Assembly: GCA_030765185.1 (NCBI GenBank) | Contig: JAVCDE010000026.1 | Location: 17,276 to 81,275 of the forward strand | From: Candidatus Aceula meridiana | Lineage (GTDB): Bacteria; Omnitrophota; Gorgyraeia; Zapsychrales; Aceulaceae | Direction: 5' to 3' | DNA: 64,000 bases | Shown: positions 1 through 24,000 of the stretch, piece by piece | How the letters are laid out: the number at the start of each line of letters is the position of its first letter | Position numbering within the stretch: the first letter of the stretch is position 1 | Program-made: the position numbers and the translations under genes | Notes under the pieces: generated by a model | What the model saw: the letters and a program-made list of their open reading frames with translations, nothing else | What the model was told of the DNA's origin: nothing | Database searches by the model: none

Positions 1-3000
1 GTAGAAAAACAACTTACTCTTTTAGACCAACTCGAAGCGATAAGGCGTCATATCTCAAGAACACTGGGTGAAGAGGTTGCTCTTAATCAGATCTTCAGCC
101 AGGTTGTTATTCCAGACTTATCTGCTAAGGCACGTGAATCTTTAAGAAATGACCCAGAGGGAAGCAGGGTTGAGATAAAAAGTAAAGCATTAGCTGAAAA
201 ATTAAGAAAAGCACTTGAGAAGGGTGAGGCACAAGTAAGCAAATACTTAGAAGGCGCACAGCCAGAGGTAACTGCGGAACATATTCAAATTTTGGAGTCT
301 CAAGGGATAGAAGTTCTTAAGGTTCCTGAAGACAAGATAACAGGAATTGATAAGAGAAAGCCTCTCTACGACAATGATTACTTAGCAACGCTTCTGCTTA
401 ATGTTGGGAAGATAACTGTGAAGAATACAGCGTCTTCCGGAAGTTTAATCAAAAAATCAACAACGCTGCTAACAACAAAGGAATTGAAGCGAATCGATAG
501 AAAGTATAAAGAAATTCTTGCTGTCTATAACGAGAAGGGCGAATTTCATGGCAACAAGAAGAGAGGGGAAATTTATAGCGAGGCAGGTAATTTTGTCAAA
601 ATAGCTGATGTTATTGCGTTCGGATCCAATGGTTTTGTTTTGCAGAGGAGAAGTAAGCCGCAATCTCCCGCAACATTGTCTGTCCACGGAGGGCATGTAG
701 AGCTTGGAGATTGTCCTGTTGAGGCCGCCGTCAGAGAAGTAGAGGAAGAAATCGGCATAGCGATAGACCCTTCTAGGTTGATCCAGGTGGGAGAAGGCGA
801 CTTGATGTTTAAGATGCTTGAAAATGATGCAGTAGAAAATCCTCATATTGATGAACAAGGGCGATATATTTCCAACTCGGGAGTGAAGGGAAGAATTGTT
901 AATCGATTTATGGCCGTTTATGTTTTATTTATGACGCGAGAAGAAATAGAGAAAGCAAAGCAATATGTCGCAAGTAGAAAGGCTAAAAATCTCAGCGATG
1001 TCGATGTCCGCAACGAAGTCAGTGAGATCGTTGAGAAGAATATAGAGGAGCTCATTGAGGATGTAGCGATTTCTCCAGCGGAGTATGCTACAGGTATTCG
1101 GTATTATTTAACGTGGCAGAGATCGTTAAGTCTTATTCAGAAAATCATTAAAGGCACGGAAACAGCAAGATTAATTAAAAAAGATATAAATTGTGATATT
1201 GCAAGACAAGCTGGAGAAGCGGAAGAGGCGTCCTCAAATATTTTATGTATATGCAATTCTAATTTTAATCGTAGTCCAGCGATAGAGCTAGTATTTGATT
1301 ATTTAATTAAAACAGCAGGCATGATTGACAAGCTGTTAGTTGATTCAGGGGCAGTAGAGCAGGAAAGCAAATTTGGCTGGGGAGGTGTTAACGAAACACT
1401 TGCTGATGCTTTTAGAGCGCAATTTAATGTTGAACCAAAGAGGATACTATCAGAACCGCTATCTTTAGAACAGATAAGAGAAGCCCATATTATTGTTATA
1501 GCAACAAATAAAATTAGACAGAAAGTACAGGGTAGATTTGCTGGTGAGTTAGGGAAGAAGAAGATATTTGTTATGGAAGAGCTAGAACAGCAGATGGACA
1601 TTGTTGAATTCAGAAATAGTCCAAACGATGATGCGTCAATTTTATTTAAATATTGCCAGATTATTGATGCGATGATTTGGCCTTTGATCATTCAGTCGCA
1701 GCAGAAACCAGGGGTATTGTCAAATGAAGATCTTGCGATAAAGGTTAAGCGCGATCGTTTATTATTGTATTTGAAGAAAACACCGTTAAAGGAGGAATTA
1801 GCTGTTTCTGAATTATCAAAAAGATTTGATATTCATGAAAATGTGATAAGAGCAATGATTCGCGAGAATTTTAAGTATCCAGAGAGCTCAGACTCTTATT
1901 TGGATGTACTGACTGAGGGTGGCAAATCAACAGATAAGGTTAAATTATTTACTGCTATCCATAGGGATGGGGATTGGCATTTAGGGATACAGGTTATACT
2001 GATAACTTCTGAAGGAGAATTCGTATTATTCAAACGCCCTAGCGGGAAATTTGGGTTTATTGGTGGACATGTTGATGTTGGAGAGGAATCAAAAGTAGCA
2101 GGAATACGAGAAACGATAGAAGAAACTTCGCTTACGGTTGTTGATCAAAAAAGGATCATTCGTGTTGGAAGATTTAAAAAGGAAGGAATTCTTGGTATCG
2201 CGGGAATTAAGCTTAATGATTTCTCAGAATTTCCAACAGTTAATATTTCGCTTAAGGGTACGGAAAAGAATGTCGATCTTGAGGATATTTATGTTTATAT
2301 GCTGAACAGAAAAGAATATAGACAATTGCAGAAGATGGCTGATGAACAAGATGCTTTGAAAGTTAGTGAAGGGGAGCTTTCTGGATTAACAACCGAGTCT
2401 TTTGAAGAAATAAGCGATGGGCTGCAGCATAGAGCTGAAAGATATTCTATTGGCAGTCAGATGGTTTTTAAGGTTGCTTCTATAAAGAAAGGTTTAAAAG
2501 ATATAGCAGGGGCACTTGTTCAGAAGGAAATTATTAATAAAGATAGAAAATCAAACGAAGATTTCTCATCGTCAATTAATAATTTAGAGAAAAATTCCGT
2601 AGGATATACAAGATTAATGCAGAAGTTCTGGTCTTTGTTTACTAATAGCATTAAGGACGGGATTTCTAAGGAAGATCTAGCCTTCTTTAAAACAAGACGT
2701 AATCTAGAAACAGGTAAGTTGATTAATATATATTGTGCTTCTTATTCTTTTTGGATTGATGCAAAAACAGAAATTGGTATTAAATTATCAGATTTCCAGA
2801 AAAAGATGATGAAGGTGCTTCCAGCTGATTTGCAAAATAAGATAGTCTTATTTAAAAATTTTCATATAACGATTGCGGTGCCACTACGCGACATAGATAG
2901 TCCTTATTCAGAAGAAACAATTAATTTTATTGCTAATGATTTAGATGGGATTGCCTCAGAAGTAAAGAGTACTGAGTTTGACATCGTAGGATTAAATGCA

Positions 3001-6000
3001 TTTCCGGGAGGCATCTTATTTGCTCAAGCTTATCCTGTTTATGATAATAATGGAGAATTTGAATTGGATAAATTCGAAGAGGCAGTGAACCAGAGAAGCC
3101 CGCATGCTTTGCATTACGAGTCAAATGTCTTTCACATAACGCTTGGTTTCTTAAAAGATAAATTAACACCCAAGCAATCAGCAGAATTTGTTGATTCTTT
3201 AGCTAAATTGCGCACTTCTCCGATAGGTAAATTAAGAGTAACCGAAATGCAGCTTGATTATTACAACAATTTACTTATTCCGGAAAAAATATTAAAGAAA
3301 TATTCGTTATCGTCATCAGGTATTAGAGAAAACAGCAAAAACTTCAAACCGTTTGAGAAAATCACGGAAGACGCAGTAACGATTGATGTCCTTTATCAAA
3401 GACCGGGTCAAAACTTTCAGCAAGTGCCCCAGGTAAAAATACCTTCTTATAAGGATACTAAGAATGGGAAATTATCGTCAGCTACTGAAGCTCTAGGCAG
3501 AGAAGGATATTCAAGAGATGAAGAATTCTTAACACAGAAAAGCAAGAACGCGGAGTCGACAGAGGAAAGATCCAGGCAAGAGCCGTTGTCTTCATCTCGA
3601 GGCAATTCACCGGTTGAGTCTGCGCCGAATATGCCTATCTCAACACCGGTTAAAATCAATGCGCCTATAACGCCGATACTGCTTATGCCATCTGTGGTAT
3701 CTAGCGCAGCATTCTTGTTGAGCCGAAACGCAAAGAACGGTAAAGCAGATATGCCGATAGGCATTTTAGGAAATGGTCTTGCCGAATGGTTCGCTGAAAA
3801 TAATAACAGTGCACCAAACGTAATCAGAAATAAAAATATTGATAAAAACGAGCCGTTGTCAGTTGCTTTTTCCTCCCGTGGCGGGATATTAAGCAGATTT
3901 AAAAAGACAGCGGCTCTTCTATTTATACGGGCGGCTCTTCTTTCTATAGAAAAGCTAGCACAAAAGCCGTTGTCAGTTGCTTTTTCCTCCCGTGGCGGGA
4001 TATTAAGCAGCTTTAAAAAGACAACGGCTTTTTTATTTATAAGGGCGACTCTTCTTTTCATAGAAAAGTTAGCACAAAAGCCGCTGTCAAGACAGCTCTC
4101 CTCCCGTGGCGGGAACGAGCTTGAGGCAGCGGCATCTTCTATTGTTCAAAAAACAATCATTGTTGCCTCAATCATCCTTTCTTTAATCTTCTTGACCCCG
4201 ACTGCAACGCCAGCACAGGCACAAACAGAAAGCTATTCTATCGAAAACGTTGACTATTTAACTGAAGCAGATGAACAAAAACTTTCTGTGGCTATTAGCG
4301 AAATAGGGTATCCGCAAGATTTTCAAGAATTTTATGCTGCTGGCTTTGAGCAAGTTCTTGCCGATATCGATGCTTATGAATTAGGTCGTAGATGGCAAGA
4401 GTCTGATATCGATGGCTATAAAGATATTATGAAAGATTTCCGAAAGCGCATGCGCAAGAATGATTACTTCCAAAGAACCTATCCTTTAAGCAATAAGCCT
4501 CGCAATCCGTTTGTACAAAAATGGGCAAATGCTTTGCGTCTAGAGGAAGGACATATCTTTGATGTTGTCAAAGCCACTGAACTCGGGCGTGTAGACCAGA
4601 CTGAACAATTTAAAGATTATCGACTTCATAGATGGCAGAATCATGTTCTCTATTTTATGTTGAAAGTGTGGGGCATCGACTTTGATGTCGTAGCAACAGA
4701 GAAATATTATGTTTACCTTATTGAGCGAGATCGAACAAAAGATACTCTTGCCCCAGAGCTAACGCATCTTTATCTTGATGGCTACGAGGGGGTTTTAGGC
4801 GCAGTGAACCTAGAAGACGAAGTCTATACTCTTAAGGGGCAGCAATGGATAAGCGATATTACTGTTTCAAAAAAGACCTTTTGCGAGAATACAGCCATGC
4901 TTGCTACGCCACCACTTAGAGGTTTCTTTTTTACTCCATATTATTTTCATTATGGCCAGAACGAATCTGACTTCTTAAAAGCAGACATGTATTTCGGTTA
5001 TGCGTTTGCTTATCTTAATGCTGAGAAATATAGTAAAGGAATTGAATATCTTACTCGAGGACTTAGACTAAATCCGTTTGTCAAAGATCGGTGGATTGAG
5101 CTTGCACGTATTTATCGATATTTAGCATGGCTAAAGACGAGAGGAAAATATCAAACTCAAGAGTCCTCAGAGTCTTTATATAAAAAAGCTGCTGCAGCTT
5201 ATAACGAAGCCATTGAGCTTGATCCATATGACTTAACAAAAGTTTTTGAATTAGCAGAAGACGTTTATTTAGAAATAGGGGAGATTGAAAAAGCAGAAGA
5301 ATGTTTTGCTAAAGCGATCATGCTCGATATGCGCGTTAAATATCGGATGGAGCGGTTAGTTAAAAAAGCGGAGAAAGATCAAAAGAAAAAAGACCAAAAG
5401 GTGAATAATAAGGCTTCATCGAATAATGAAACAAAGTTAAATCTACTTCAAGCTTTCATTAATAGCGAGGATGTTTCAAAGTTCCTCCCTCTCAAGCTTC
5501 GAAACATTGAACAAAGAAGTAACAGCGGCATCATCTCCAGCGCCTGTGAATCGCTTTCTTTGGCAATTTCAAAAGAAAAAAATAAATCTTCATCGAATTC
5601 AATTTTAAAAACTGATGTTATAATAAATTTAAACACGTCAAGCTGGGGAGATTTACCAGACCGTCTTACCTCGTCCGTGGCTGGTGGGGGGCGGTTTACC
5701 CCGGCTTGGCGTGTTTCTTCTTCAGCGGCCTCAAGTGCGCAAAACGCTAGAAAATTCAACAAAGAACTTGAGATTTTTTGGGATATTTATCAAGCACTTA
5801 TTAGAGCTGCACTAAAAACGAATAATCATATTTTGACCCGCCAAGAGATACGAGGATTTATTAACCATTATATCCTTGTTATCGATAAGGACAGAGACCT
5901 TGCTTCTGAATTTCTAAAAATTTTAGATATTATGGATTTTCGCCCGCCTCAGCTGTGGGATGCCTATCCGCCGGCTTGCCCTAAGGTTGAAAAACGTTTT

Positions 6001-9000
6001 TATGAATCTTTAATTATCAGGAATCCAGCGCCCTTTGTGGAAAAAGGAAAGTTAGATTTTAGCGCGGTCCTTGATTTACCTGAAGGAAGAAAAATTAGCC
6101 AGGATGAATATCATTTTCTTTCAAAGCTTCGTGGTGAAAGAAACAGCCTTTTGGTGGATCCTATTTTTATTGTTGCCCGCATTGAAAGACAGTGGGCGCT
6201 CTATAATCTGCAAGGCATGATTTGCAAGGAGGTTTTTAAAGAAAATCAAAAGACGGGAACTTTTAAAATTTTGCGAAACTCAAGATTTTTAAACGTTTTC
6301 GATACATGTTATTTTAAAAATCAGAACAGCCATCTGAATTTTGAGGCTTTACCAAATCTTTTTAGTTCGGGACAAGAAGTTCATCAAGAGATTTTCTTAT
6401 CAATGCGAAAACACCATCAGAAAGAGCTATCGTTCACTGAACTTTTATCTAATTATTTCTTAAAACCTTTTATTTTATCTCAAATTTATTTGTTTAGAAA
6501 CATTTTTGATATTCCCATTAAGCCAAAAAAGAAGATGGAAAAAGCCCTAAAAGAAATCAAGGCATCTTCAAATGCAAAAAACAACAAGATTTTTTCTCCA
6601 AAAGATATTATTCAAGCAATTAAGGAAACTGAAGAAGTTCTTCGGGAGATTTCTCGTTTTAAGGCGGTAAGGATTTCAGAGCCTAGGGCTTTTGGACTCT
6701 TAGGAGCAAAACTTAAAAGTGCAGGCCTTCAGACGGCATTGACCTTACAGATTCTCACAACTTATAGAGAAGACATCGAAAATAGCAAGAGGACGCCTAC
6801 TCAAAGCTTCTTTAAACGCATTCAATCTTTAAAATTTCGGGCTCAACATGAACTACAGTGGCGTGAAGGAAAGATAGATGACGCTTTTGAGTCCTTGCTT
6901 AGCGCTTTAGCTCTAGCTGTTGAAGTAGAAACACAGGAAGTTGTTGATGAGATGTTTCAAGAACTTCTAAATAAAATTATTGTTGAGGGCAAAGGGCAAA
7001 GCGAGGAGTTGATGCGTAGAAGGACTCAAATATTTTACGACGCTATTATTGCAGGAGAAGATAAAGATTTTAACGAAAAAGTCCTTCTTCGAGCATTAAC
7101 GGATCTAAGAAAGATTATATACACAGCAGCGATTAGTCAAAGCCAGAGTGCGATTAACCGGGTTATTCGGTTTGGACTTGTGCTTTTTATCGCTCAGAAA
7201 GAAATTAACCTTTTTGAAAAGAGCGTTGTCGATTCAAACAACATTGAAATACAAAAAGATGTTGCTGGGGCTTATGAAAACAGCGCCCGCGCTTTAATAG
7301 AGCTTGATGCAGATATCAAAGATCTTCAAAAGGCAGAGCAATATATCCAAAAAGCAGTTAAGTTGCAGCCTGAAGAAGATGCCTATAAATGCTATCTTAA
7401 CAATGTGTATCTTAAGCAGACGATTCACTATATTAACGAAGGGGAGCTTATCAAAGCTGAGAAGGCTTTTGAAAAAGCTGTTGCCGATGATTTAATTGAT
7501 GCCCTTGAGCGTCAAGATCTTGAAACAATCGGTATTGATCTATATTTAGGGGTTATTTATCTTCTTCAGGGAAAATCCATAGCTGAAATCGATGGCACCT
7601 TTGCGGAGGCTTTTGAGGCAACAGATGTTTCTATCTTGCTGAGTTATTCTGAGCGCTTAGAGTCTCGTGAAAAATTTCTGACATATCTTTCTGAAGCCAT
7701 TCAAAGAGATTTGTCCGTTGAAGCAAAAACTGCGATGGCAGAATTCTTAAAGAAAACAAGTTATTCTATAGGAGGAGCGATTATGGCCTTTCGCAAAAAG
7801 ATTAAAAATCTTTTCGCGAAAGGAAAATATGAAGAGGCAAAGGAGCATCTTACGGTTTATTTTAGCTTAGTTAGCCAAGACGCAGCGTTAAAGGATCTTG
7901 GGATAAAGATTGATAAAATTATAACAATATTGGCTAGGGCAAAAATTTCTGAGGGTTCAGAGAATGTGTCAAAGGTATTGGCTGAGTACGAGAAAGTATT
8001 GGCTATTAATCCTGCAGATGAAAATCTTGTTGAGAAGATTGCACAAATTAAAAAGAAAGAAATTGAGAGAATTGCACAGATTAAGGAGCAAGAAGAAAAA
8101 GACCAAAGAGAAGCTAAAAAAATTAATACGATTGGGATGCATTTAAGGAATGCCGGCAATCAGATTGCAGCTAAGAAATTTGACCGTGCTCAAAAGAATC
8201 TAGAAAAAGCTAGAGAGGTAATCGATAGTTTAGAAGAGCCGCAGGAGTCTTTATCTTTGCTATGGAAGAAAATTAGCGATGATCTTACGCGCAACAGAAA
8301 AGCTCCTAAGACAGTAGAGAAAGAGGTTGTAGGCGAGACTGGAAAGAGAAAGAAGCCTAGCCTTATTGTTGCTCCGAGTAACGAAGAAACCAAAACCAAC
8401 AAAGAGGAAACGACTCATCAGAAAATCAACGTTTATGCCATTGGAGCGGTCCGCACCTTATTAAAAGGAAAGGAAGAGCAAGAACAAAAAAGAATTTGGC
8501 AGGCGGTTTATTTCGAGAGAGACTTAAAGCCGGTTGAAGGGGCGAGCTTCAGTCTTTACACTGTCCGGTTTGGTAGTGTAAGAATTTTAATTATTCCACG
8601 AGAGGTAAACAAAAAAAGGAAAAGCTGGATTATTGCCGCAGTTGTTAACCGTGCAATATTAAACAATACAGCTAAATATGGGAAGATTATTTCAAATATC
8701 GGAAAGAGATGGGATGTTTATCAAAAAGATGCACGCCTTATTAAGCCTAAAAAAGACTGGGGATCTTCCTCTGCATCAATAGTTCAGGATAAAATAATTT
8801 GGATAGCAACCTATCAACAGATGGCTTCTTCTTTAGGAAGCGCGCAAATTAAAGATCAAGTTCAGGATATTGATTTTTCTTCTAATTTTTTAAACGCAGA
8901 TTGCCTTCTTTGTCAGTCTCTTGATAAGCAGGGGGCTGTCTTTTTTGCGGTTTGTGATAAAAGGATTATTGGGTATGTTATTTTAAAAGAAACAGGATTT

Positions 9001-12000
9001 ATTCCTCGCATCGCTGTCCATGAAGATTTTCATAGGCAGCATGTTGGAGCACAACTTTTTGAGTCCTGCAAAAAAAGAGCTTTAGAGCAAGGGATAAGAT
9101 CTCTTTTTCTGGATTTTTATAATCTAAACAACGCGTGTGGAAAAAGAAGAAAAGCTTTTTTTGAATCTTTAGGGATGAGCATATCCTCACTTAGTAAAAA
9201 GCAGTATCTTTTTCGGGCAAAGTATGAATTAAAGATTTCTTCAGGTGCACGTCTTATTAATCCTAAGAAAGCCTGGGTGTCTTCTGCAGCTAAAGCGCGT
9301 TCTCTACCCTTAGGAAGAAAAAGCTCAAGCTCTATATACCTTATAAACCTTTTAGGCGTAAGCCATGATACTTTGGCAAACACAGAGAATTTCTGGAACA
9401 AGATTGTTACGCTTCTCAAAGAGGACGGGGTCGCACCTGAGAAAATTAGTATTCTTAACAATTTATATGAACATATAAAAGGTTTTTATCAAGCTGATGA
9501 CATTATCTCGCACGGATATCATTGTTTATTGCATAGCTTAGAGGTTGCAGTAGATGGCTACATCGCTGGAAAAAATAAAGGTTATACTAAAGAAGAAAGA
9601 TTAGAACTTCTTGTAAGCGGGATTTTGCACGATCTTGACCCTCGCAACGGAGTCTTTAGAATTCCTAGGGTTGTAAACACAGTTGCATTTTTAGAGAGTG
9701 ACAAAATTATTCAAGGATACATCGAAGACTTAGAATTATCTTTTGAGAAAGTTATTATCAATATTCTTCGCACACATTATCCTTGGAAAGAGGGTGCGCC
9801 ACTTAAATTTATTCAAAGACTTAACAAGAGTATTAAGGGAGACGAAAAAAGAAGTCGGCAAAAAGAGATTGCTGAAACTTTGGCTCTTATAGACAAAGTT
9901 GCGGTTTACGCGCGACTTAATCCTTTGGTCGCTGAATATCGCGTGCGTCAATTAGCTAAAGAAACAAAATGCAATGCGGATGAGTTGGTTAAAAATACAT
10001 TGTTATTTTTAGAAAAAGAAATGAAAGATTTTGATGCAATGTTAGGCAATTTTTTACCATCAGAATTCACAAAGAATTTTGGTAAAACGAAAGCACATTT
10101 TGAGAAAAGAAGAGAAGAGCTATCCTCTTCAACGATTCGGCCTTCCAAAAGTTTTTCAGTTCCTAAAGCCAATTTCAAAAGGGTTGTTAAAAAAGCACAG
10201 ACTGTCTCATCTACCATTAAGGTTAAAGTTGATGAACAAGTCTCAAAGAGAGCAGAAACTCTTCATCTAGAAAAGACTTTGCACGAGGCGATTAAGCATA
10301 TTGAAGATTCTACTGGAACAATTATTCAATTAGGCTGGAAGCATTTGAATCTAGGCCTTTCCAAGAAAATAATAAAAATGGTTAGCATGCGTCAGCTTCT
10401 TTATAATCAGTATAATTTTTTACATTTTGTTTTGCCAGATGATTCTATTTGTTTGATTGAAATGGTTAACGTTCATGCTGATTGGTGGGATCATCAATGG
10501 AGGAAAAGCTTGAAGTGTTCTATTGAGCGTGCCTTAAAGCCTTTTATTGAGGATCAAAAAGGCAAGGATCAAAAAGGAAAAGAAAGACCTGTGGATATAC
10601 TAGAAGAGTTTGTGAAACAAAATCTTGAGAATATGAGCCTTGTAAATCTTAAAAACAGTCGTAGGCCTTTTGTGGTAGTTAATTTTCCTGTTGATTCTAT
10701 AGTTTCGCTAAAGAAGCTTCTTGCGAAAGATGGCGTGAGATTTCAGGACGCTGAAGATGATGATCAATTTGATGTTTGTTCGAAAGAAAGGCCTCACTGT
10801 CGTGTCGGAATCGATAGAGGCAAAAAGACAGTAATTTTTTCGCCTTCATTCTTTAAGGGTAAATCGGCGCCTTTCGATGTTTGGTTTACTACTAACTTGA
10901 TAAACGAATTTCTAGAAAAAAAGAAAGCCGTAGAAAAGAAAGAAAAATCTTTTCCAGGAAAAGGAAAGGCGTCGTCCACCGCCTTTCGAGCAGAAAAAAC
11001 AGAAAGCAAGGACAGGATTAATTTAGAGGACGTGGTTTTAAAAGATTATTTAAAGAACCATTCTAAAACCGAATTAAAGAAGGTCTTACAAGAGATAAAT
11101 TATGAGGCTTATATGGATTGGGAATTATTAATCACTGATTGGATTGAGGAAGAAGATGCGGCAGTAGACTACGGGGAAGGCAGTATTGTTTTTGCGCGGA
11201 AAAATGGAAAAGAGGTGGGATATTTTTTAAGACGAGGAAATAAATTTTCTTTTATGGCTGTCCGAGAAAATGAACGTGGCAATCGTATTGGGCCGGACAT
11301 GTTTATTTATGCATTGAACAAAGCAAAAGCCGATGGTTTTTCTATCGTTACATTTGATGTTGAATACACCAATGAGGAGCAATTACGGTCACTTGATCGA
11401 CTAAAGAAAGAAAAGAAGATATCTTTTCAAAAACAATATTTTTCTCGGGTTTTCATCTACACCGCTCGCCTTGTTTCCTCCTCAGCCAAGAGTAAAAAAG
11501 GCAAAGTGTCGTCTATTAAAGCTTGTGCAAGCTCATTAATTTTAACAGAACAAGATCTAAGGTTATCAAGGCAGCATGGACTTGGTATTCGTTACGTTAG
11601 CCCTGTTGGCGGAGAAATTGTTGAGGAAAATAAGCGCGTTGTTAATATTCTAAATCGTGAATATCCAAATTATCTTGATGAAAAGATTAATTTTATTGTT
11701 TTAACAGAGCAAAGAGCTAAAAAGTTTTCTTTAGATTCTAAAGAAATTAGAGTTGCTTTTAGTGGTCACCCGTCTCATGGCAGACAGCTATTTTATCCAT
11801 TAAGAAATAAGATAGATGATATTTATTTATATTTAGGCGCTAAGGGATGTGGTGATTTAGTTTCTAAATGCTTAACGCATTCTATCTCAAGATACAGGAA
11901 CAATGGACTAGCTTATTTAGATGATTTTCAGAATGCACAAGTTTTTACGGATATTCTTAGAATGAAAGGTGCTCGCGTTCCTTTGCATGTCGCGGCATGT

Positions 12001-15000
12001 AAGTTAGATTACATTCTTGATCAAGACGGAAATGTTATAGAAATTTCTGATGATATGCGCGCTTCTACTGCAGATCATCAAGTCGGATTTCAAAGAAAGC
12101 CAAGCCTGCATTTTATTCTTTATGATTATTACGATAGGTTGGGGTACTTAACGTATGCTGTAAAAAAAGATCCAGGGCTTTTAAAAATAAGAAAACAACT
12201 TGGGAATTTATCACAAGAACAATATTTTCTTCATATAATCAAAGAATTGGCTTATACAGAGGCTAAAAAAGTAGAACTAGGGGTCACAAAAGTTTCTTTT
12301 CATGAAAATGATATTACACTTTCTGGAATGGAAGTAGATTGGGATGAAGCTTCTTATGTAAAGGATATTGCTTTTGGTGATCCTTATTCACGTTTAACAA
12401 AAAATATGGAGGAAAAGAAATTTTATAGAAAATATGGATTTCTTTTGTTTGACTATAGAAGAAAATTAGAAATCTTGCAGAGATTTCAAATTTCATTAAC
12501 AGAACACGCTTTATTCAAAATTTCGAATATAAATGTGCAGCAAGAATTTTATCGTACGTTTTTAGATAGTTTAAGTTTAGATATGCGCCGCAGGGTTATC
12601 GCTGCGACTTCATCAAATATTAAAATAAAAACTGCTACAAGCGACGATATTCCATTCATTTTATCTCAATTCAGAAAAAGAATTAAGTCGTGGAGTCAAG
12701 TAAAGATGAATTATAAAAAGGATAATTCTAAGAATTTTTTCAGCTCACCATTAGCATTGAGTAATATACGAAGCGTTTTTTATTCGGTGAAAGAGATTTT
12801 TGGTGAAAAAATGCCCTGTAAAGAACAAAATCGACCAATGTTGCCTTTTGATTCAAAAAGTCTGCCTATTCTTTTTTCTGTTAGCCCCATTGTTTTAGTG
12901 CCGCTGATACTTGTTTCCGGTGTCAGCGTTGCTGTGATGGCAAAAAGTGCATTAAGTATTGCTATTATTTTTGGTATTCTTGGTTTTATTGTGTTACTTC
13001 GAGAATGGTTTGCTCAAATGAGGGCTGCACCAAATTCAAAAGAAATTTTATATGTTATGGTCTTAAATGAGCCGCTGATGCACAAATCGCCTTCCCGTGG
13101 CGGGGAGATTTCGTCAGCGGCTCATTTGTTTGCAAGGGCTTTTTCTGCAGCTTCTTCAGCCGTATCTGCTCCAAGAGCTTCTTCTACTGCTAAGCTGAAG
13201 AAAAAGAAAAACACTTTTGACTATCATTGCTTTTTTGATGTTTTAGGTATGCCAAAGTATTTTCAAGAAAATCCAGAGTCGTACAATATCATTAATTATA
13301 TGAATTACACCATTCAAGCGCTGCGTACGCCAGAGAATTTTAAAGGTAAAGTTGCTAGAATCCTTTCTTTATTGAATAGAACTTCAGAGGAATCTTTGGG
13401 TTATCTTGAGTCTGTGGCTAAGGATATTTATGCGCCTTTAGCTAATCGCGTTGGTTTTTTAGAAATTGCTGAACAGATCAAAGATTCTATTTTTAAAGCC
13501 CGTTTTCCAGATTTATGGCTTAAGTCTGAGCGTCAGATTCTTCAGGCTTTAGGAGGTATAAGCCGCGAGGAAGCAAACCGTTATCTTTTAGAAGTTAGTA
13601 ATAAGATTAAATCAAGGTTAAAGGAATTGGGTGTTGAGGTTGAAGCGGTTTATTTGAGAGTTAAAGGGGCGAGCTCTGGCTATGAAAAGGTTAAAAACAA
13701 AAGGGGCGACAAGACTTCGTATAATAAAATTGCAAGATTGCAAGATTTATTTGGTCTTCATATTATTTTAAAAAATAATGATGATTACTGGAAAGTTGCC
13801 GGACTTTTATTAGGCTGGGACAGTACTATGGCTCCATATCAAGATCTAGGAGGCGAGTTAGACGTGCAACAAACAGAAGAAAAAAGGCGCTTTAAAGGTG
13901 ATAAGTATGATGCGTATCATTTTGGCATTAAGATTCCTGTGTCTCCCAAGGCTAAAGAAAAAAGAAAATTTGTTATGATGGAGATAAAACTTTTTGATCC
14001 TGATAAGTATCTATATTTTCGATATAGTCAAGAAATTGCCGCATGGATTTATGAGCTAACCCGGCGTTATCCGAATCAAGAATTTCTTTCAGGTGGCCTA
14101 ACCCTAATGTCAAGTGATCCGGAGAAAAACTTTAAAAATCTTTATTTTTATTTTAAGAATTGGATTTATTTTTTCTTTGTTCAGGACAATAATCTTGACG
14201 ATTGCTGCATTTTAAAACCTGCAGGACTTAAAAAAGGCGTTATTATGGCAGATGTTTTGGGCTTGCTCGGAGTTGATGAGTTTTTGGCTCTTACGCAGAG
14301 TGAGCCTGTTTTACGGGAAGGTATGAATCAAAAGGATCATGCACTGCTTTCTGGTTTTAGTTTTGGACAAATGATTCGAAAAAATCAGGATCCAGATGTA
14401 AAGAAATTTAATAAGACCGTCATCCAAGAGCTTAGGGTGGGAGATTTTCTTCAGGTTGATCCTATGAGAAGGGCAGAATTTACTGATCAAGAAAAAAAGA
14501 AAATAAGTGAAAAAGCAAGACATTTAAGGACTCTCCTAAGACTCCAGCTTAAACCTGGAGATTTTTATAACATGTCTTTCCCGAGTAATGAGAGGCAGAA
14601 AAAAGCGACTCTTGGCATAATAAAGTTAACCAAGGCAGGCGAGGACAGAGTAGTGTACAAGTTTTTATTTAGAGATGAAATTGCGCAAGCCGTAGGTTTT
14701 AATGATGGGATTTATATGTGTGCTGTTTTTGGTCTTTGTGAAGTCTCTATAACGACTGAAGTTGCTAAGCAGGCGATTGAGGGAAAACCATGGCTTATGT
14801 CTAGGGTTGTAACCATTAAGGCAAAGGGTGGACAAGCTAAGAAGACTTTCGTGGAGCTGACGTTAAGCCTTGATTATGATTATTCTGAATTAATGAAAGC
14901 TGTTGTTAGCGTTGTTGCTCAAGTTGGAGCCGAGATTTTCGACAGTCAATATTTTGGAAAAAAAGTTAAGATGACGATATCGATTCTTGAAGAAAATATT

Positions 15001-18000
15001 CTAAAATTAAAAGATCTTTTAGGGAAAATTAAAGCATTGGATAAAGAAGCTAAGATTATGGATGAGAATTTTTTGAAAAAAGAAATACACATTCTTGCGA
15101 ATCTTAACAAGGACTATCAAAGTTTTTCTGTTACGCTTAATAGCATTTTATCTGTATTTGAAACTTTAAAGATTTATGTTTATGAAAATGTTAGTAGCTG
15201 GCAACCGAAAGATGAGAGATTAACGCCTAAAAAAGAAACTCCATTTCTTGTTCCGCTAAGAAGACTTCGCAAGCTAGACGACAAAGTTGTTTTGTATGAA
15301 TTTGTAATTGGAATACCGGCTACTTCAGAAGAGAAAATTTTGATAGAAAAACTTCAGCAAGTAACAAATGGCGGAGTTGTTGAAATTGTAGAGGCTTCGT
15401 CAGCGATTTCGTCTTTAGCGTTTTTTGACTTTATTCCGCAAGATGAGGATGCTGAGACGAAAAACGCGCGTCCAATAATCATTATGGAAGACGACGATAA
15501 AGAAACAACTAGGGTGATGTTGAACATATGGTTTTTTGATCGTGAGAATTTTGATGCCATGATGGAAACGTTTAAAGGAACAATGAAGGCTAAAAAGTCG
15601 GGGGTTATAAATATTAGCCTTGATCAAGAATTATCGAGACTTCATAAGATGCAGCGGAATATCCAGCGGCTGGAACGAATAAAAAAGACTATGGATCCGA
15701 ATGCGGGGAGCCTAGAATTTTTCGATAGTACTGTTGGTCTTGGACAAATTAGAATTAATAGGCTTAGAGGGGGAGCATCGTACGAAATAACAATCAGAAA
15801 AGACGATAAATTAGGGTATGTTTTAGTTTGCAAGGAGCAAGAGGGTGCTGAAGAAGTTATTATTGTAGGTCTGAAATCGACCTTGTCTCCGGGAATGACA
15901 ACCTTACCTCTTTTAGGGCGAGGCAAGACTTTTGGGGAGGCGGCTAAAAATGCGCATTCAGTCCTGACGGCAGACCAAGAGCTGGACAGAGAAATGTATG
16001 ATGTAATGATGCATATATGGTTTAAGGCTCGGAAAAGGTTTGGGCGTATGCTTAAGATCTTCAAGGTCAAGATCAGAACGAATGGCGCAGGGGAGATAAC
16101 CTTGAGTATTGGCGGGCATCGAATAGCCATCGGAAAATTAAAAAAGAACACTTTTTATACAGTAACTCTAAGGCGAGATGCTCATTTTGGATATATTTTG
16201 GTGTTGAGGACGAAAACGGGAGAGACGGCTATCGTAAAGTTAAATGTGTCATTGACGAAGAACACATATCTTTCTTCTTTGGGGCGGGGGAAAACTTTAG
16301 GGAAGGCTATGGAGAGGGTACAACAGAAATATCCAAAATCTGCGCACTCTCTTTCAAAGGGCAAGTTGAGAAAAGTCGAAATAAGGGATCTAGTCAAATT
16401 CGTTCAGGCTGGATTTGAGCCAGGGGAAGAATTGAGTTGCGCATACGAATATGAACGAGTATTGAGCTGTGGATTTCTGATGGATACCTATCGCGTAAAG
16501 GAGGGGAAGTTGGCTTCTCGTTTAAAAGAAACGATTGTTGCCGAAGCTCCTCCAGGCATACAAAAAGCACTTGATGCTTTTGAAGCTGTCTATGGGAAGG
16601 AAGTTTCTTCCGTACCGTTTACCCACGAAGGTCAAGATTATATTTTTATCAATTCTTTGTGTGACCTATCTTTTACCCAACTCTGTGAAGCCATTATTTA
16701 CGATACCTGCACTCTGGCAGGAATGTATCATTCGGGTGCTAGCCTGAAATCTCAAAATTTGATGTATGGGCATAAAAATGAAGATGAGAAAAACAGGGTT
16801 TATTTAAAGGCTATGTATAGTGTTTTGACTAACTATCAGGAAAAGGCTGATGTTATTGTTGATGATTTTTATGTGGAGGCAGAAACTGACAGTCTTGGGA
16901 TAATAGAGGTTTTTACACAGGGAACCACATTGCAGATTTGTGCCCCCAAAAGGGATACTGTCTATGAAATAACGCTTAGGGACGATAAACGATTAGGATA
17001 TGTCTTGATTTTGAAGGCGAAAGACGGTGCCCAAGAGTTTGTTATAGTCGGGATGAGACGCAATCTTAACAAAATATCAACAACCTTCCCGATCTTAGGA
17101 CAGGAGCCAACCCTTGAGGAGGCTCTTGAGAACGCAGATTTGACGATTATTGAGGAGCAAGAAGAGAGAGGTGAGATTCGGACAATGCTGAACACATGGT
17201 TCTTTTTTGATCGTGAGAAATTTGATGCCATGATGGAAACATTTAAAGGAACAATAAAGGCTAAAAGGTCGGGTTGTATTGATATTAATGTTGATCGAAA
17301 ATTATCGATGCTCAGTAAAGCGATGTGGAATGCTTGGAGGTTAAATGGAATAAGGGAAAAGATTGATTCAGCTGCCCAAAGAATAGAATTTTTGGATAGT
17401 ACTATTCGGCTGGGAAACATTAGAATTAATGGGCTCAAAGGGGGTGCCTCGTATGAAATAACTATTAGAAAAGACCGTCGATTAGGGTATGTTTTGGTTT
17501 TCACCGAACAAGATGAGGCCCCAGAAGTTATTGTCATTGGGATGAAAGAGGTAATAAGTACGAAAAAGACAACATTGCCTATTTTAGGACGAGGCAAGAG
17601 TTTTGATGATGCGATAGCAACCGCGCAGCCGGTATTAACGGCAGGCCAAGAGCTGGATTGGGAAATGTATGAAGTAATGCTAAATATATGGTTTAAGGCT
17701 CGGAAAAGGTTTGGGCGTATGCTTAAGATCTTCAAGGTCAAGATCAGAACGAATGGCGCAGGGGAGATAACCTCGAGTATTGGCGGTCATCAAATAGCCA
17801 TCGGAAAATTAGGAAAGAACACTTTCTATACAGTAACTTTAAGGCAAGATGCTCATCTTGGATATATTTTGGTATTGAAATCGGAAAGAGGAGAGACGGT
17901 AATCGCAAAATTAAACGAGTCATTGACGGAGAATACATCCTTATCTCTTGGGGGGAGGGGAAAAAGTTATTCAGAAGCCTTGGATAACGCCTTGGCGAAG

Positions 18001-21000
18001 GGGATTATTGAGGGGGTAGTAAAAACAATAATGAATGAAGGAAGAATAAAGCAACATTTAAAAGCTTATGGAGAGAAAGGAAGTCTTAGCCAAAAAGATT
18101 ATTTGGAATTAATTCAAGAGGTAAAGGGAATGAATTTTTCAGCTATTTTATTATTGAACAGTATCTTTTTAGGGAATCTTAGTGATGAAGTGCAAGAGCG
18201 GGTTATTATTCGAAAGTTATTTCGTTATCGAGCAGAAAAACATGGTCTTTTTGAGGCGTATATGAGAAATGCGATTGCCATTTCGGAATCTTTTTATAAA
18301 AAAACAATGCAAAGGTTTTCTGAGGATATTCCTGAAGATAGAAATAAATTTCTTATTGTGGAGGAGGATCTAGGCTCTTTCGTATTTGATTGGCTACAAA
18401 TTGCCAAGAGATTGCGCGGGATAAGTGAAGAAGAGAGAGCGTTATTGATCAAGTCAATCCAAAGCATAGACGCTGAATTTTTTGATGTTGAAGAATTTCT
18501 TAGCAATGGAGTTGATAAAAGAACTTTGATTCTCTTCGGAGAAGCTCTCCAGGAAGAGGGTTCGGAGGATTATCCTCTTGTCACATCTTCGGCAGTGACG
18601 GGCAGGAAAAACATTTCCTCCTCAGCCAAGAGTAAAGAGGAAAAAGCGTCGTCCACCGCAGAAGGTTTGCCTAACTTGACAAAAGGACAGTTTAGAAAGT
18701 TTGCTCAAAGATTTATAAGGTCGCAACCTTGGGATACGAGAAGTAAGTATAAAAGCTCTCTTTTTGAATACGGAGATTTATCAGATTTTGAAAATCTTGT
18801 GGAGACTGATTATCTTAAGCATCCTGCCGAGACTAATTTGAGTGGGAAGTATTTTTGCTTTGAAGATTATAAGATTTTTAGCCTTGGCCAGTCTCAGATA
18901 GGATTTCTAAGGAATGCTACAAATTTTTTAATTTTTATGCCTGAATTTACCGGATGTAAATGTTTATCGCTTCATTGCTTGGATAAGAAGCCTAGCATTT
19001 ATGCTACACATTTAGGCAGCACTTTTGATTGGAAGCGATTTTTTGAATATTTTGTTAATCTTTCAACTGATCAAAAGGAAAATATGAAGTGTTGGAGTTT
19101 ATTTTGGGAGCATCCTTTTTCTGAGAAGAGCATGGAATATCTTATTAGGATTAATAAAGAGTTGCCGCAACAGATTTTTGATATTAAAAAGAAATATAAG
19201 CACTCTTCATTATTTTTTTCTCGTCAATTTTCTTTTTTAATTCATTTTGATTATATCGCCATGTTGTCGAACAGAAGGGTTGAGAAAGTTCTTGCGCTTC
19301 CTTCGCAGCGGTCTTTTCGTCCTGATCTATTGCAAAATTTCTTCTCTTTGATTCAGCAACGGTATCCTCTTATCCCATCTCGGAGGGAAGTTGTTGATGG
19401 GATTAAGGGCATTGCGCCAACAGTCTTCCAAAAACAAGTCATCTCCTCAGCAGTAACCTCATCGGCGGTAGCGACAATGGTAGCAGACGTATCCGCGGCA
19501 ATAGCGCCTATTGCCTCGATGTGGGCGCCTATTATCGTTTTTAGCTCAATAGGTGGATTATTGCGATTTGCAATAGCTAAGCATATTGACAAGTATTTTA
19601 AAGGAATTTTTCCTTATGGCACGCTGGGCGTGAATTTATTAGGTTCCTTGATGATGGGATTTATAGTCGGAGGCGTTGAAGTTATTGGTGATATTCCTGC
19701 GTGGCTTATCGGCGGATTTCTAGGCGCTTTTACAACTTTCTCAACATTTATTTTTGATATTGAAACTTTAAGAAAAAGTGGAAAATATCGAAGTCTTGCG
19801 GGATACACTCTTTTAAGCATTTTAGGAGGTTATTTTGTATTTATTTTTGGGTATTTCGCAGGGTCTTTTGGTTTAAACACGAATATGAAAATCATTTTTG
19901 TTTCATTGATCATTATTCCTCTTTTTGCTTTTCTTGCCTTTAAAAATTCAGAAAATAAAATTCCATCTTTGCGAAAAATCCCTTCCTTTGTTTCCGGGCG
20001 AGAGACTCTTTATTTGTCGATAGGAGTTACGCTTGGGGTTGTTTCAAGGATGCTTTTTCCAGGCCAAACACTTTTTGTCAATATTCTCGGATCCTTTTTA
20101 ATTGGCGCGGCTGATTTTGGCTTAGGCGATGCATCGAAAAAAAGAAAACTTCTGCTTATTACTGGTTTTTGCGGAACACTGACAACCTTTTCAGGGTTTA
20201 TTTTAAAAACTCATGGTTATTTAGCCGCGATAACGCCTTTTGAGGCAGCCGCATATATATTGGCGAGTGTCGGTTTAGGGTATTTATTTTTAAAAATTGG
20301 GGAAAAATTTAGTGCTTTTCTGCTTGGAAATAAAAAAGATACAGGATACAAAGGGCAAAATAGGAAAAAAAAGGAGGAGGTTTCTTCGGCAACCCAACCC
20401 CATGGAGCCTTAGGCGAACATTCTTCAAAGCCTTGGCGAAGAATGGATAAAAATCTTACCGCAAAGGAAAGTTCTTCCTCGACACAGCCCAAAACGTCTA
20501 AAAATGTGGCAGAGACAAAAAAAGAATATAAATTCTTTTCCCGTTTTAAAAATGGCAAGGTTATTGAAATTGAAGATTATTATGGTGCTCCAGCCGAAGA
20601 GGCTCAGGCTATAGATTTAAGAAAAGCGGTTGAGGACGCAAACCTATCTTATGCTAATGCTGACGACCCGGACGATTTATCGACTGATGATTATTTTAAA
20701 GATATCAACTTGCAGGCAGCTGAAGACATTCAGTGGTTGATTTTTGGAGGGGCTTTTAACGGGTGTCTGAAAGATGTTATGGAAAGAATCTTGCATTGTG
20801 ATGAAGTTTTTTCTGATGAATCGACATTGCGGATCACATTGCCGCTTTTTGCTATTAAGAAGCTCTATAGCCTTCAAGTGAGCAAGTACACATATGATGT
20901 TCGTAATTATCTCAACCCTGAGAGGATTCCCGAAAGAATCGCCGAATACTCTAAAGAAGGATTAGGGGTTTTAACAACAGGCCAGGAGGATGTAATCAGC

Positions 21001-24000
21001 CCTGGCTATCATTATTTTATGTTACCATACAACTCTAATTATAAAATCATCATCCGAAAAGATGGAAAAGTTTTGCGAACCATCAAGGAAGATGGTGCTC
21101 CGATAGTGATTCTTGACTTCTTTACGTCTCTTGACTCCATGAGAACTCACGCCTTTAGGCCAGTTGCCTCTTCCTCGTCTGCCAGCAAAACTATTTTACC
21201 AGCTAACAAGGGCGGATTAGAGTTGCTACGCAAGATGATACTCGATGTTTTGAACGAAAAAGGTCAGGTCAGATTGGCAATCGATGGTGGAGTCGCAGTT
21301 GGTAAGAAGTTTTTGGTCGCAGCCATTCTAGAGGGAAAATTAGGCTTGACTCGTGATGAAATTTGTATTGCTCTCTTTAATAAGTATGCTTTCAAAAGAC
21401 TAAAGGATGGTAGAGATCTCTCTAGCAAGAAATTGTTAATATTCCCTGGACACTTCTCTAGCCGTTTGTCCGATGTTGATATTAAGGTCCATTTGGTTAC
21501 TGACGGTACCACGCAGCGGTCTGATATAGTACTTAGAGGTCAGGACCTTAGCGATTACCCAGAGCTTATGAATTTTCATTCATTAGTTTTAAATGAGCTA
21601 GAAAAGAAAGAATTTGACCTAACAATCGATAATAGCCAACGGTATCGGATGCCTTTTAAGCAGATGGTAGAGCTGTTTAGCGAGCCGCGCACAAATGGAG
21701 CCTTAGGCGAATATCCTTCGAAATCTTGCCGAAGAGCGGATAAAAATCTTATCACAAAGGGAAGTGCTTCCTCGGCACAGCCCAAAACGCCTAAAAATGT
21801 GGTGGTTACTAAGCGTGAAAAGGATGACTTGAGAGATATGAAGCTCTTTAAAAGATTTTATGACGGGGATGATGATGCCTTAGGCGAGTTCTTTGAAATT
21901 CGTAGACCTTATTTTATGGGATTTTTGATAAAATGCAAACCTGGGGCTATTTCCCGCGATGACGCTGAAGATATTTACCACGATGTTTTTATCAAGGTGT
22001 TTGATAGAGAACGTACACCTTTTAAGGGAGAAGACAAGCCGAGGATTTGGATAAGAACCATTTTACGAAATGCACTTTTTGATCGCATGAAACAAAAAAA
22101 GAGCAAGAGAACAGTTCCCCTTGACCTCAAAACGTTAGAGAATTTTCTCACCCTGTCAGGTGTATTTACACCGGAAGATTGGAAGAGTAGAGAAAAAATG
22201 CGTTTGTTGATACAGAGGAGGATTAGTCAACTACCAGCGACGTATAAAAATTATTTTCTTGCCCACCATTACGATGGTTTTAAGTATAGGGAAATTGCAA
22301 AGAAGGAAGGTGTTGCGGAAGGCACCGCTAAGAGTACTGTCCATAAGGCACTTTTTTACATGATAAAGGTGTTGGCGCCGGATATAAGAGAAGATCCGAA
22401 ATTGTTGGAGTATTGCCGGGAGCACTTGAAGGATTCTCTCAAAAAGGTTCTTGGAGCAGTTGTAGTTGCGGTTTTAAGTGGCGGACTATTGGCATATGGT
22501 ATGTGTAATAATGCCGGAATGACAGAAGGGGTTGTATGCGCTTTTATCCTGCCGTTTTTCACCTACGCAAGTTATTCTAAGTTGTTAAAGACAATACATG
22601 CGTTATTCGAGGATATAAAAAGGTGCATTTCTTCATTCTTTGTTTCCTTGACCAAGGCGGCAACTTTTATTTTACACATAAGTATTTCTGGCATACGTCT
22701 TGTGTCGGGGGGTTTAAACTTTGGCACGCATTTTGCGTCGGGGGTTTTAAGACCGCTAGCTCAAAAGTATATTTCTTTACGAAAAAAATTCCGATCAAAA
22801 GATAAGCAGGCTAATCAGAGCGGTTGGGGCACAATAGCTGCGAAGGCGTCTTATTTGAAGAAACCATATCAAAATAAATCGCTAGGGAAAAGGGATGATG
22901 CGCCTAACAGTTCTTACTGGAAGAATGGTAGGCGCTATGTAAAAGAAAGAGGTTCTTGGTTTTTTAGCTTTAGCCCGGTGTTATTTTTCTTCAAAGGAGA
23001 AATTTATGCTCTGCTACAGGCCTTAGAGATTCCTTGGCAAGAGATAGGGATGACGGGATTAGTTGTCTTAGGGGTAGTGGTGATAAAGTTTTTTGCTGCA
23101 GAGAAAGGTGTTCGCATTGACACAAAAGAAAACAATAAAAATAAAAATTCTTTAGATATCACGCCGTTATCCAAAAGAAGAAATTTTTTAAAGACTGCGA
23201 CAAATGTTTTTTCTATTTTATTAGTTATCGGACTAGTGTTTTTGATACCGCTTGATGCTGTCTATGCGCAGGGTGTAGCTGACCCTGTTGAGAAGACTTT
23301 TGACCAAGAAAAAGAAATCTTTTATAAAAATTTAAAGCAATCTGCCTTGCCTTTTATCCAGCCGTTTGTTGCAACACAAGAGGACGCCAATAGGTTTGCT
23401 AATGACTTTATCTATGAGGTAGCGGGATGGAAAAGAAGCGACGGGGAACCCATTCTTTACGTCTGGAGCCAGCGGCTTAAGAATGCGCGAAGAGGGGGTC
23501 ATAATAAAGAAGTGGCTCTAGATGAGGTGATCGCCCTTGAGCTTGAAGCCATAAAAGAAATCCGCACCATTATTCACAATCGTTTTTCTCTTCATGACAA
23601 CAGTCAGGATGCGTTTCTTATTCATGAGATTTTATCGACAAATCAGGCCTGTTCTTTAGGCAGGGCACAGATTCTTTTTATCGCGCTTAATGCATTGGAA
23701 ATTCAAACATTAGGGGTCACCATGGAGGATCTTGAGGCAAACTCCCAAGGAGAGCGTGGAACATCTATTGTTGTCTCAGCTCGTTTGGCAGATTCTCGCC
23801 AAGTTTTGATAAACGTTACACTTGATTCGCCGAATTTTTTAAGCGCTGCATGTGCTTTAAGTGAGATATTTATTGCCCATGATTGCGCTGTTGAATTTAA
23901 TCCTCAGTACGCCGGAAGTCAATTTTACAGAAATATTCATATTCTTGGTATGAGAGGGCTTATCTCCGCAGCTCATACAGATTTGGCCGTAAAATATAAT

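Follow-up and report, generated by a model that had tools for sequence, protein, structure and literature searches.

A five-module array within a giant open reading frame

The 64,000-nucleotide (nt) stretch of DNA analysed here (the window, taken from contig JAVCDE010000026.1) opens inside a giant multi-domain open reading frame (ORF) which carries an array of five copies of a single protein module. The array is not a separate gene but lies in one uninterrupted forward-strand frame running to a stop codon at 24529-24531. The ORF lister places this ORF at 292..24531 (8,079 amino acids, aa). The frame contains no stop from window nt 1 onwards, giving 8,176 visible codons, and nt 1-291 read like ordinary coding sequence, such that the window begins with this frame open. 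The giant gene probably continues upstream, with its true start outside the window and a length of at least 8,176 codons.

Using a hidden Markov model (HMM) built from the five copies, we found exactly five modules when all six frames of the window were translated, with domain E-values between 1e-50 and 6e-57, bearing out the copy number given in the original prediction. The array has the order A1-B1-X-C-A2-B2, in which X is a spacer, and it sits in one unit of approximately 1,060 aa (aa 5036-6099) of the giant ORF. The ORF, the unit and its immediate upstream neighbour are laid out as follows.

1..24531, + strand: giant multi-domain ORF, at least 8,176 codons, open at the 5' end of the window
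13189..15411, + strand: upstream unit with a RelA/SpoT-like alarmone-synthetase domain (aa 4456-4555; TIGR00691, E 3e-12)
15397..15417, + strand: upstream junction site EASSAISS, matching the cluster at 18586-18660
15505..15987, + strand: module A1, 161 aa, A type with a 38-aa helical insertion
15988..16350, + strand: module B1, ~113-121 aa; AlphaFold2 model with a predicted local distance difference test score (pLDDT) of 88
16351..16776, + strand: spacer X, 142 aa, not a module, no similarity to anything found
16777..17172, + strand: module C, HMM match at 16813-17166; the most diverged copy, with LGQEPT in place of LGRGKT
17173..17658, + strand: module A2, paralogue of A1 (61% aa identity)
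17659..18003, + strand: module B2, paralogue of B1 (73% aa identity)
18004..18588, + strand: C-terminal tail of the array unit, 195 aa, apparently helical from the character of its sequence, no family assignment
18586..18660, + strand: junction cluster TSSAV...ISSSAKSKEEKASSTA, closing the array unit

Modules of the B and C types are ~113-120 aa long and those of the A type, which have the 38-residue insertion, ~155-160 aa, so that the ~95 aa first proposed falls short of the real module. Apart from the A1/A2 and B1/B2 pairs, every pair of modules is 29-40% identical at the amino acid level. The spacer and the tail showed no similarity to each other or to the rest of the ORF, and nothing significant when compared with Pfam and NCBIfam. 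A sixth, degenerate module upstream of A1 was hinted at by BLAST (E 0.01 over 42 aa), but it is undetected by the HMM and was rejected.

Along the giant ORF, domain searches assign two NUDIX domains, a low-molecular-weight phosphatase (LMWPc), LigT, TPR, two GNAT, HD and RelA/SpoT-like domains, the five-module array, two CrcB domains, sigma-70 regions 2 and 4, and TPR, with many of these calls scoring below the gathering score. The two CrcB fluoride-channel domains, which are integral membrane domains, are encoded at 19459-20385 in the same polypeptide as the array. Further on, 21772-24531 encodes regions 2 and 4 of an ECF-type sigma-70 factor, after which come hydrophobic segments and TPR repeats. 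The presence of CrcB channels, an ECF sigma-70 factor and TPR repeats in one translation product is an unusual combination.

The module family and its predicted fold and location

A search of 1.84 billion representative proteins with a HMMER profile of the five copies returned nine matches. Five of these are eukaryote-type fibronectin type III (FN3) or cadherin-like repeat proteins, which match through many weak stretches and only at profile positions ~33-68. The other four are true relatives over the whole module, including its end motif '(L/I)LG(R/K)GKT..EAL'.

P0003: 273 aa, from a JGI metagenome
P0004: 3,173 aa, from a JGI metagenome contig in which another gene of >2,960 aa precedes it
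P0005: 2,383 aa, from NCBI assembly GCA_016783385.1
P0006: 987 aa, from a JGI metagenome

Every relative carries two to four modules in tandem. P0004 and P0005 each have four diverged modules in a conserved order, and such arrays are therefore old and stable. In these two proteins the array is followed by XRE-type HTH_3/HTH_31 domains, while in P0006 it lies between sigma-70 region 4 and TPR repeats; TPR aside, the module array is the sole part common to the relatives and the window ORF. By eye, P0004 (L017, 8942-18463) and P0005 (L018) also show a transglutaminase-like 'C...H.WV.V...D' pattern ~80-100 aa upstream of the array, with an SSAV or SSTS site between the transglutaminase-like segment and the array.

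The original prediction held that the module could not be assigned to any family, and this stands: Pfam, NCBIfam and the PDB all fail to provide an assignment. Searches of Pfam with each window module at E up to 10 gave nothing meaningful, NCBIfam gave no match for the modules, phmmer of the module against PDB sequences found nothing, and no PDB sequence or profile search returned anything below E 0.04. No module relatives were found in scans of genomes, metagenomes and viral contigs. Word-indexed searches of a 5.8-billion-cluster protein collection with the 833-aa region, an 18-module alignment of the family (A3) or the P0004 and P0005 arrays also returned nothing, a method which we count as blind to this family since P0004 and P0005 themselves come from public data. 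Judged by its sequence, the module is a new and unannotated repeat-domain family which occurs inside a known kind of gene, the giant multi-enzyme ORF of Omnitrophota.

Structure prediction on a single module, which had been proposed at the outset, yielded a confident AlphaFold2 model of B1 when supplied with A3 (pLDDT 88.1, predicted template modelling score 0.81). The model of A1, made with the five window copies as the alignment, was moderate (pLDDT 74.6). In B1 numbering, which is used for all positions below, the model contains helices at 2-12 and 18-24, eight beta-strands within 26-101, and a helix at 104-112. The predicted fold thus starts with two helices, continues as an antiparallel beta-meander of eight strands and finishes with a C-terminal helix. 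The modelled meander includes an FN3-like 'L-x-x-x-T-x-Y-x-[IV]-T' hairpin, and a Gly-rich 'LGRGKT' turn is predicted to precede the last helix, which would begin with T-x-x-E. This is the classical capping box of a helix N-terminus, so part of the end motif is structural. Tyr57 and Gly101 are near-invariant across the 18 modules. Foldseek comparison of the B1 model gave no significant match (best E 0.02, TM-score 0.28).

In a hydropathy scan, aa 4230-6392, which run from a transmembrane pair (near aa 4193-4250) up to where the CrcB helices begin (aa 6392), showed no transmembrane-like segment. One peak alone, at aa 4649-4667, rose above the threshold there; it has three acidic residues and was not counted as transmembrane. 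Because nothing transmembrane-like intervenes, the array should share its side of the membrane with the RelA/SpoT-like domain, which uses ATP/GTP, and we infer that the array is cytoplasmic.

The module might instead be a divergent FN3 (Ig-like) domain (PF00041) which has drifted below the detection thresholds, an alternative that we consider unlikely but by no means negligible. Like FN3, the module is found in tandem arrays, and it contains the tyrosine-corner motif 'L.P.T.Y.[IV]' of FN3 strands E and F, in which the tyrosine is the near-invariant Tyr57, set in a strand E-loop-strand F pattern 'i.i..L.P.T.Y.I.V'. There is weak but consistent profile similarity as well. The search of representative proteins drew in FN3-repeat proteins through profile positions 33-68; the whole of P0003 scores 30.3 bits with Pfam fn3 (E 4.8e-7; cut-off 25), with no single stretch passing; and the best PDB matches of the A3 profile are all fibronectin, tenascin or monobodies (E 0.04-2), aligned at the strand E-F hairpin (positions 41-64). 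Alignment of A3 by hhalign with the FN3 repeats of the spurious matches gave a probability of 68% over 59 columns (module 10-69 versus FN3 17-77).

This likeness, however, covers only about half of the module, which lies below all of the curated thresholds. Pfam fn3 matches two of the 18 family modules, below threshold (best E 0.02). With the E limit raised to 10 it still matches no window module, such that none of the five reaches its gathering score. The model, with three helices and eight strands, does not resemble the seven-strand Ig-like beta-sandwich: it has N-terminal helices, three or four additional strands and the C-terminal LGRGKT..EAL helix where FN3 has strand G alone. Moreover, the Trp aligned with the strand B Trp of FN3 falls in a predicted helix, and searches with the modelled fold bring up no FN3 structures. 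The array is predicted to be cytoplasmic, whereas FN3 domains of bacteria are as a rule extracellular. The module may be derived from, or convergent on, the FN3 E-F hairpin, and we do not assign it to FN3.

History of the A-B duplication

The window had been thought to contain two ~1.67-kb units arising from a recent in-frame tandem duplication. We confirmed a direct repeat whose copies start 1,671 nt apart, which is 3 x 557 and therefore in frame, but the rest of that description did not survive. Compared base by base at this offset, identity drops beyond 16300 to ~30%, which is the random level, such that the duplicated A-B stretch spans only ~780-830 nt. Some 870 nt of non-duplicated sequence separate the two A-B blocks, with module C also lying in between, and Tandem Repeats Finder reported no tandem array. 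The copies are thus apart rather than adjacent.

15520..16300, + strand: duplicated block copy 1 (A1-B1), partner 17191-17970, offset 1,671 nt
17191..17970, + strand: duplicated block copy 2 (A2-B2), partner 15520-16300
15961..16209, + strand: putative gene-conversion tract of ~250 nt, partner 17632-17880, 91% identical, containing a 90-nt perfect run

Synonymous (dS) and non-synonymous (dN) divergence between A1-B1 and A2-B2 was estimated by the Nei-Gojobori method on a codon alignment of 276 codons.

Whole block, A1-B1 versus A2-B2: nt identity 76%, dS 0.54, dN 0.23, dN/dS 0.43
Tract 15961-16209: nt identity 91%, dS 0.23, dN 0.07, dN/dS 0.30
Block outside the tract: nt identity 70%, dS 0.73, dN 0.32, dN/dS 0.43

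The block duplication is old, not recent. Between module types (A versus B, A versus C, B versus C) synonymous sites are saturated (dS >1.8), while dS is intermediate for the A-B block and low for the tract, and on this basis the history is three-layered. An ancient diversification of the module produced the A, B and C types. An A-B pair was later, though still long ago, duplicated in frame as a block 1,671 nt away, and both copies then diverged under purifying selection (dN/dS ~0.4) to ~70% nt identity. Finally, ~250 nt across the A/B module boundary were re-homogenised, most simply by intragenic gene conversion.

The last step would account for the perfect block that had drawn attention to the locus. 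The block is real and far beyond chance, though it measures 90 nt (16013-16102 = 17684-17773) rather than the 84 nt first reported; the second-longest run is 20 nt. No run of 90 nt was reached in 20,000 permutations (p<5e-5), whether sites or codon columns were shuffled. Identity along the duplicated block is a mosaic which declines gradually on either side of the run, to 97%, then 84-86%, then ~65-70%. Synonymous divergence falls to 0.05 within 16045-16134 and ranges over 0.05-0.23 in the tract, against 0.73 outside. The tract accordingly displays both an overlong run of identity and a locally depressed dS, the pair of features by which we judged it a putative gene-conversion tract. Because the permutations never reach 90 nt, no RNA structure was detected (see below) and identity decays gradually, gene conversion between the A-B copies is likely, and is the simplest explanation of the perfect block. 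Here the original prediction had pointed to the best available cause.

The identity could alternatively be kept by selection at the nucleic-acid level, if both copies contained, for instance, a structured RNA, a site of internal initiation or an embedded regulatory element. The dS of 0.05 in 16045-16134 would suit such constraint, as would an in-frame ATG lying ~9 nt after AAAGG inside the block. However, the folding energies of the block and its surroundings do not differ from those of shuffled sequences (z = 0.39, -0.79 and 0.36, none of them significant), and RNA structure was dropped as a cause of the identity. The gradual flanking decay is instead as expected of conversion tracts of differing ages, and no comparable element was seen in the modules of the relatives. 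We regard selection of this sort as distinctly unlikely, and retain gene conversion.

A very recent tandem duplication still close to its original identity, as first envisaged, is very improbable. It would fit the in-frame offset and the perfect runs of 90 and 20 nt, but not an identity of 76% overall and 70% outside the tract (dS 0.73), nor its mosaic rather than uniform distribution, nor copies which are not adjacent and form no array. Sequencing error is an unlikely source of the divergence given the intact frame and dN/dS of 0.43. Equally hard to credit is an assembly artefact, in which the second A-B block, or a join at the 90-nt stretch, would come from mis-assembled strain variants. An assembler working with short k-mers could in principle be led astray by an exact repeat of 90 nt, and the array is known from one assembly; exact look-ups of two neighbouring proteins returned no record of an independent one. 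Yet the copies disagree at roughly a quarter of sites (~24%), mostly synonymously and at a level typical of paralogues rather than strains, and both hold the frame of an ORF of >8,000 codons. In each copy the identical block also has homologous but diverged sequence to its left and right, and the relatives likewise carry arrays of two to four modules. An artefact is therefore unlikely. With copies this diverged and a single identical stretch, of 90 nt, the high risk of assembly collapse that had been anticipated is not supported.

Antisense open stretches lie over the array in both duplicated blocks and in the same relative frame (15642-16151, - strand, 169 aa; 16962-17741, - strand, 259 aa). 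They extend to 274 codons from stop to stop (p ~0.017 by codon-order shuffling) and are probably due to chance, as their translations are of low complexity and the sense frame has a dN/dS of 0.43.

Candidate role, junction motif and known systems

Given the RelA/SpoT-like domain on the same predicted side of the membrane, together with the HTH, sigma-70 region 4 and TPR domains fused to the array in relatives, the module is best read as a putative non-catalytic repeat of the cytoplasm which is attached to regulatory domains and would serve in binding or as an adaptor. Its conserved basic Gly-rich loop, which would place Arg and Lys at the N-terminus of a helix, is a putative anion-binding site and the likely point of contact with a ligand (an anion, nucleotide or nucleic acid). 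Taking these strands together, we think it fairly probable that the locus encodes a five-copy unannotated domain of ~115 residues with an old A-B duplication bearing a conversion tract and with a putative cytoplasmic binding or adaptor role. Several points weigh against this reading. The LGRGKT motif is not invariant, being LGQEPT in module C and S-A-x-G-E-N in the P0006 modules, and it may be purely structural, providing a glycine turn and a helix cap. The FN3-like signal is consistent enough that, instead of a new fold, the module may be an FN3 domain which is highly derived. No orthologue of the giant gene turned up in any collection searched; with two copies and no outgroup, conversion is inseparable from nucleotide-level constraint on the 90 nt; the array comes, as noted, from a single assembly; and function is read from domain neighbours and a motif only.

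Outside the array, the giant ORF is rich in a short motif, [VILA]-S-S-[SA]-[AT], found at sites such as the following.

8764-8775, 9280-9291, 11476-11487, 13111-13191 and 18586-18660, + strand: motif sites
19444-19470, 20383-20487, 21169-21186 and 21769-21780, + strand: further motif sites
20365-20526 and 21658-21819 (aa 6692-6745 and 7123-7176), + strand: copies of a 54-aa linker-like segment

In overlapping counts, SS[SAT] occurs 39 times in the giant ORF against 7.9 +/- 2.9 in residue shuffles, an approximately five-fold excess, and at a density of 4.83 per 1,000 aa against 0.89 in the 29 other ORFs of the window, in which the serine content is similar. One of V, I, L and A precedes the motif in 21 of 28 cases, compared with a background of 31% (p = 1.6e-6). 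The motif serines are TCN-coded in 67 of 73 instances versus 337 of 516 elsewhere (p = 1.3e-6), a bias which fits runs of small residues interconverting by single first-position changes while third positions vary freely. Seventeen motif clusters divide the ORF, giving units that range from 55 to 1,063 aa and mostly from 170 to 1,060 aa, and comparison with the domain coordinates places none of the 17 inside a detected domain. Several units match single domains, namely GNAT (aa 2825-2997), HD (3012-3278) and the second GNAT (3561-3729), while others hold the CrcB pair (6390-6698) and the module array (5036-6099). The sites are on this evidence candidate polyprotein processing sites or linkers.

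The enrichment is absent from 11 of 12 other large ORFs, drawn from Omnitrophota metagenome-assembled genome loci and the module relatives, and the motif as a general trait of large Omnitrophota ORFs was rejected on that account; the enrichment belongs to this ORF or lineage in particular. P0006 alone departs from this (3 observed versus 0.4 expected), with matches that fall inside module repeats and not between units.

Three further observations concern the sequences between domains. The 54-aa linker-like segment (GALGE..SK..RR.DKNL..K.S.SS.QPKT.KNV) occurs twice, with 56% identity, flanking two different units. Near-identical short linkers, 'SSSAKSK', at 11476 and 18616 have the nucleotides TTTCCTCCTCAGCCAAGAGT in common. 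'SSRGG' or 'SRGG' occurs four times, at 3830-4150 (aa ~1180-1290) and 13090-13110, two of these being within a ~40-aa repeat (PLSVAFSSRGGILS.FKKT). C39-peptidase substrates are mentioned in the literature on giant Omnitrophota proteins, and these double-glycine sites appear reminiscent of them.

A more ambitious reading would make the module a new cytoplasmic fold family restricted to very large multi-domain proteins of Omnitrophota-like bacteria, in which the conserved GRGKT loop at a helix N-terminus binds a phosphorylated ligand or nucleic acid and couples this signal to the HTH and sigma-factor domains that accompany it; the ligand could, for example, be an alarmone made by the adjacent RelA/SpoT-like domain. 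The [VILA]-S-S-[SA]-[AT] sites would then be processing sites releasing ~17 proteins of conventional size. We find this rather improbable as a whole. The significance of the locus would rise if the module's fold turned out to bind a ligand and to be linked with alarmone or transcription control, or if the motif marked polyprotein processing. If it is a true processing mark, the motif would make the polyprotein question testable. The confidently modelled module could become a family model for annotating 'dark' stretches of giant proteins, and its association with regulatory domains (alarmone synthetase, HTH and sigma-70 region 4), along with its predicted cytoplasmic placement, suggests that parts of giant proteins may be intracellular regulatory assemblies and not surface adhesins.

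Beyond the giant gene, the rest of the window (25-64 kb) contains genes of ordinary size with ~39% G+C, including those for a U32 peptidase, a Mg-chelatase-like ATPase, AccA, RlmN, BirA and an aminotransferase. The two ORFs directly downstream (25018-29163, + strand, 1,381 aa; 30452-32173, + strand, 573 aa) have no Pfam match at E <= 1e-5. The U32 peptidase is 57-63% identical to its best genome matches; 12 of 16 are labelled Omnitrophota, including Candidatus Zapsychrus, and the remaining four Planctomycetia, uncultured bacterium, Aminicenantes and PVC group. By sequence comparison, the neighbouring genes place the organism in Candidatus Omnitrophota, at phylum level only. The U32-peptidase loci of other Omnitrophota showed no giant ORF upstream and no usable synteny.

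Giant Omnitrophota ORFs of >20 kb with few, divergent domains, among them a 'multi-enzyme' class, are described in Seymour et al. 2023 (PMC10066038), West-Roberts et al. 2023 (10.1101/2023.11.21.568195) and a 2026 preprint (10.64898/2026.06.07.730766), which set their size criteria at >20 kb, >90 kb and >=10,000 aa, respectively. The visible 24,531 nt of the window ORF exceed 20 kb, while its 8,176 visible aa, cut by the window edge, lie under the 10-kAA and 30-kAA thresholds (thousands of aa). Judged on these features, the window ORF fits the known multi-enzyme kind: its neighbours are Omnitrophota-like, it exceeds 20 kb, and unrelated, divergent Pfam domains tile the polypeptide with interspersed transmembrane segments. 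Its internal repeat has mostly decayed nt similarity, which the giant-gene literature presents as the rule, adding that 65% of long proteins repeat a Pfam domain. The window ORF differs in that its repeated domain is not a Pfam family, in its additional CrcB channels, sigma-70 factor and residual gene-conversion tract, and in its strong enrichment in the [VILA]SS[SA][AT] junction motif. Term searches and selected sections of the two giant-gene preprints yielded no defined cleavage or junction motif. In the literature, these ORFs are described as poorly annotated, whether and where they are cleaved is said to be unknown, and West-Roberts et al. (10.1101/2023.11.21.568195) state the same of the cleavage points of giant proteins.

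The history of the array can be set beside a second known system. Intragenic gene conversion and concerted evolution take place between the repeats of large bacterial repeat proteins. As in those systems, the in-frame paralogous repeats of the window ORF show mosaic identity, with a short perfect tract in otherwise diverged copies. The difference is that just one tract of ~250 nt has been homogenised here, while the other repeat sequence is old and individually conserved, which argues for occasional conversion and not for ongoing concerted evolution or phase-variable copy number. The duplication shows how such ORFs grow: a block is duplicated, its copies diverge at length under selection, and conversion acts on them now and then, in agreement with the published view that such repeats are mostly old. 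The A-B duplication is real, but it is fairly ordinary repeat evolution, built on a new domain family.

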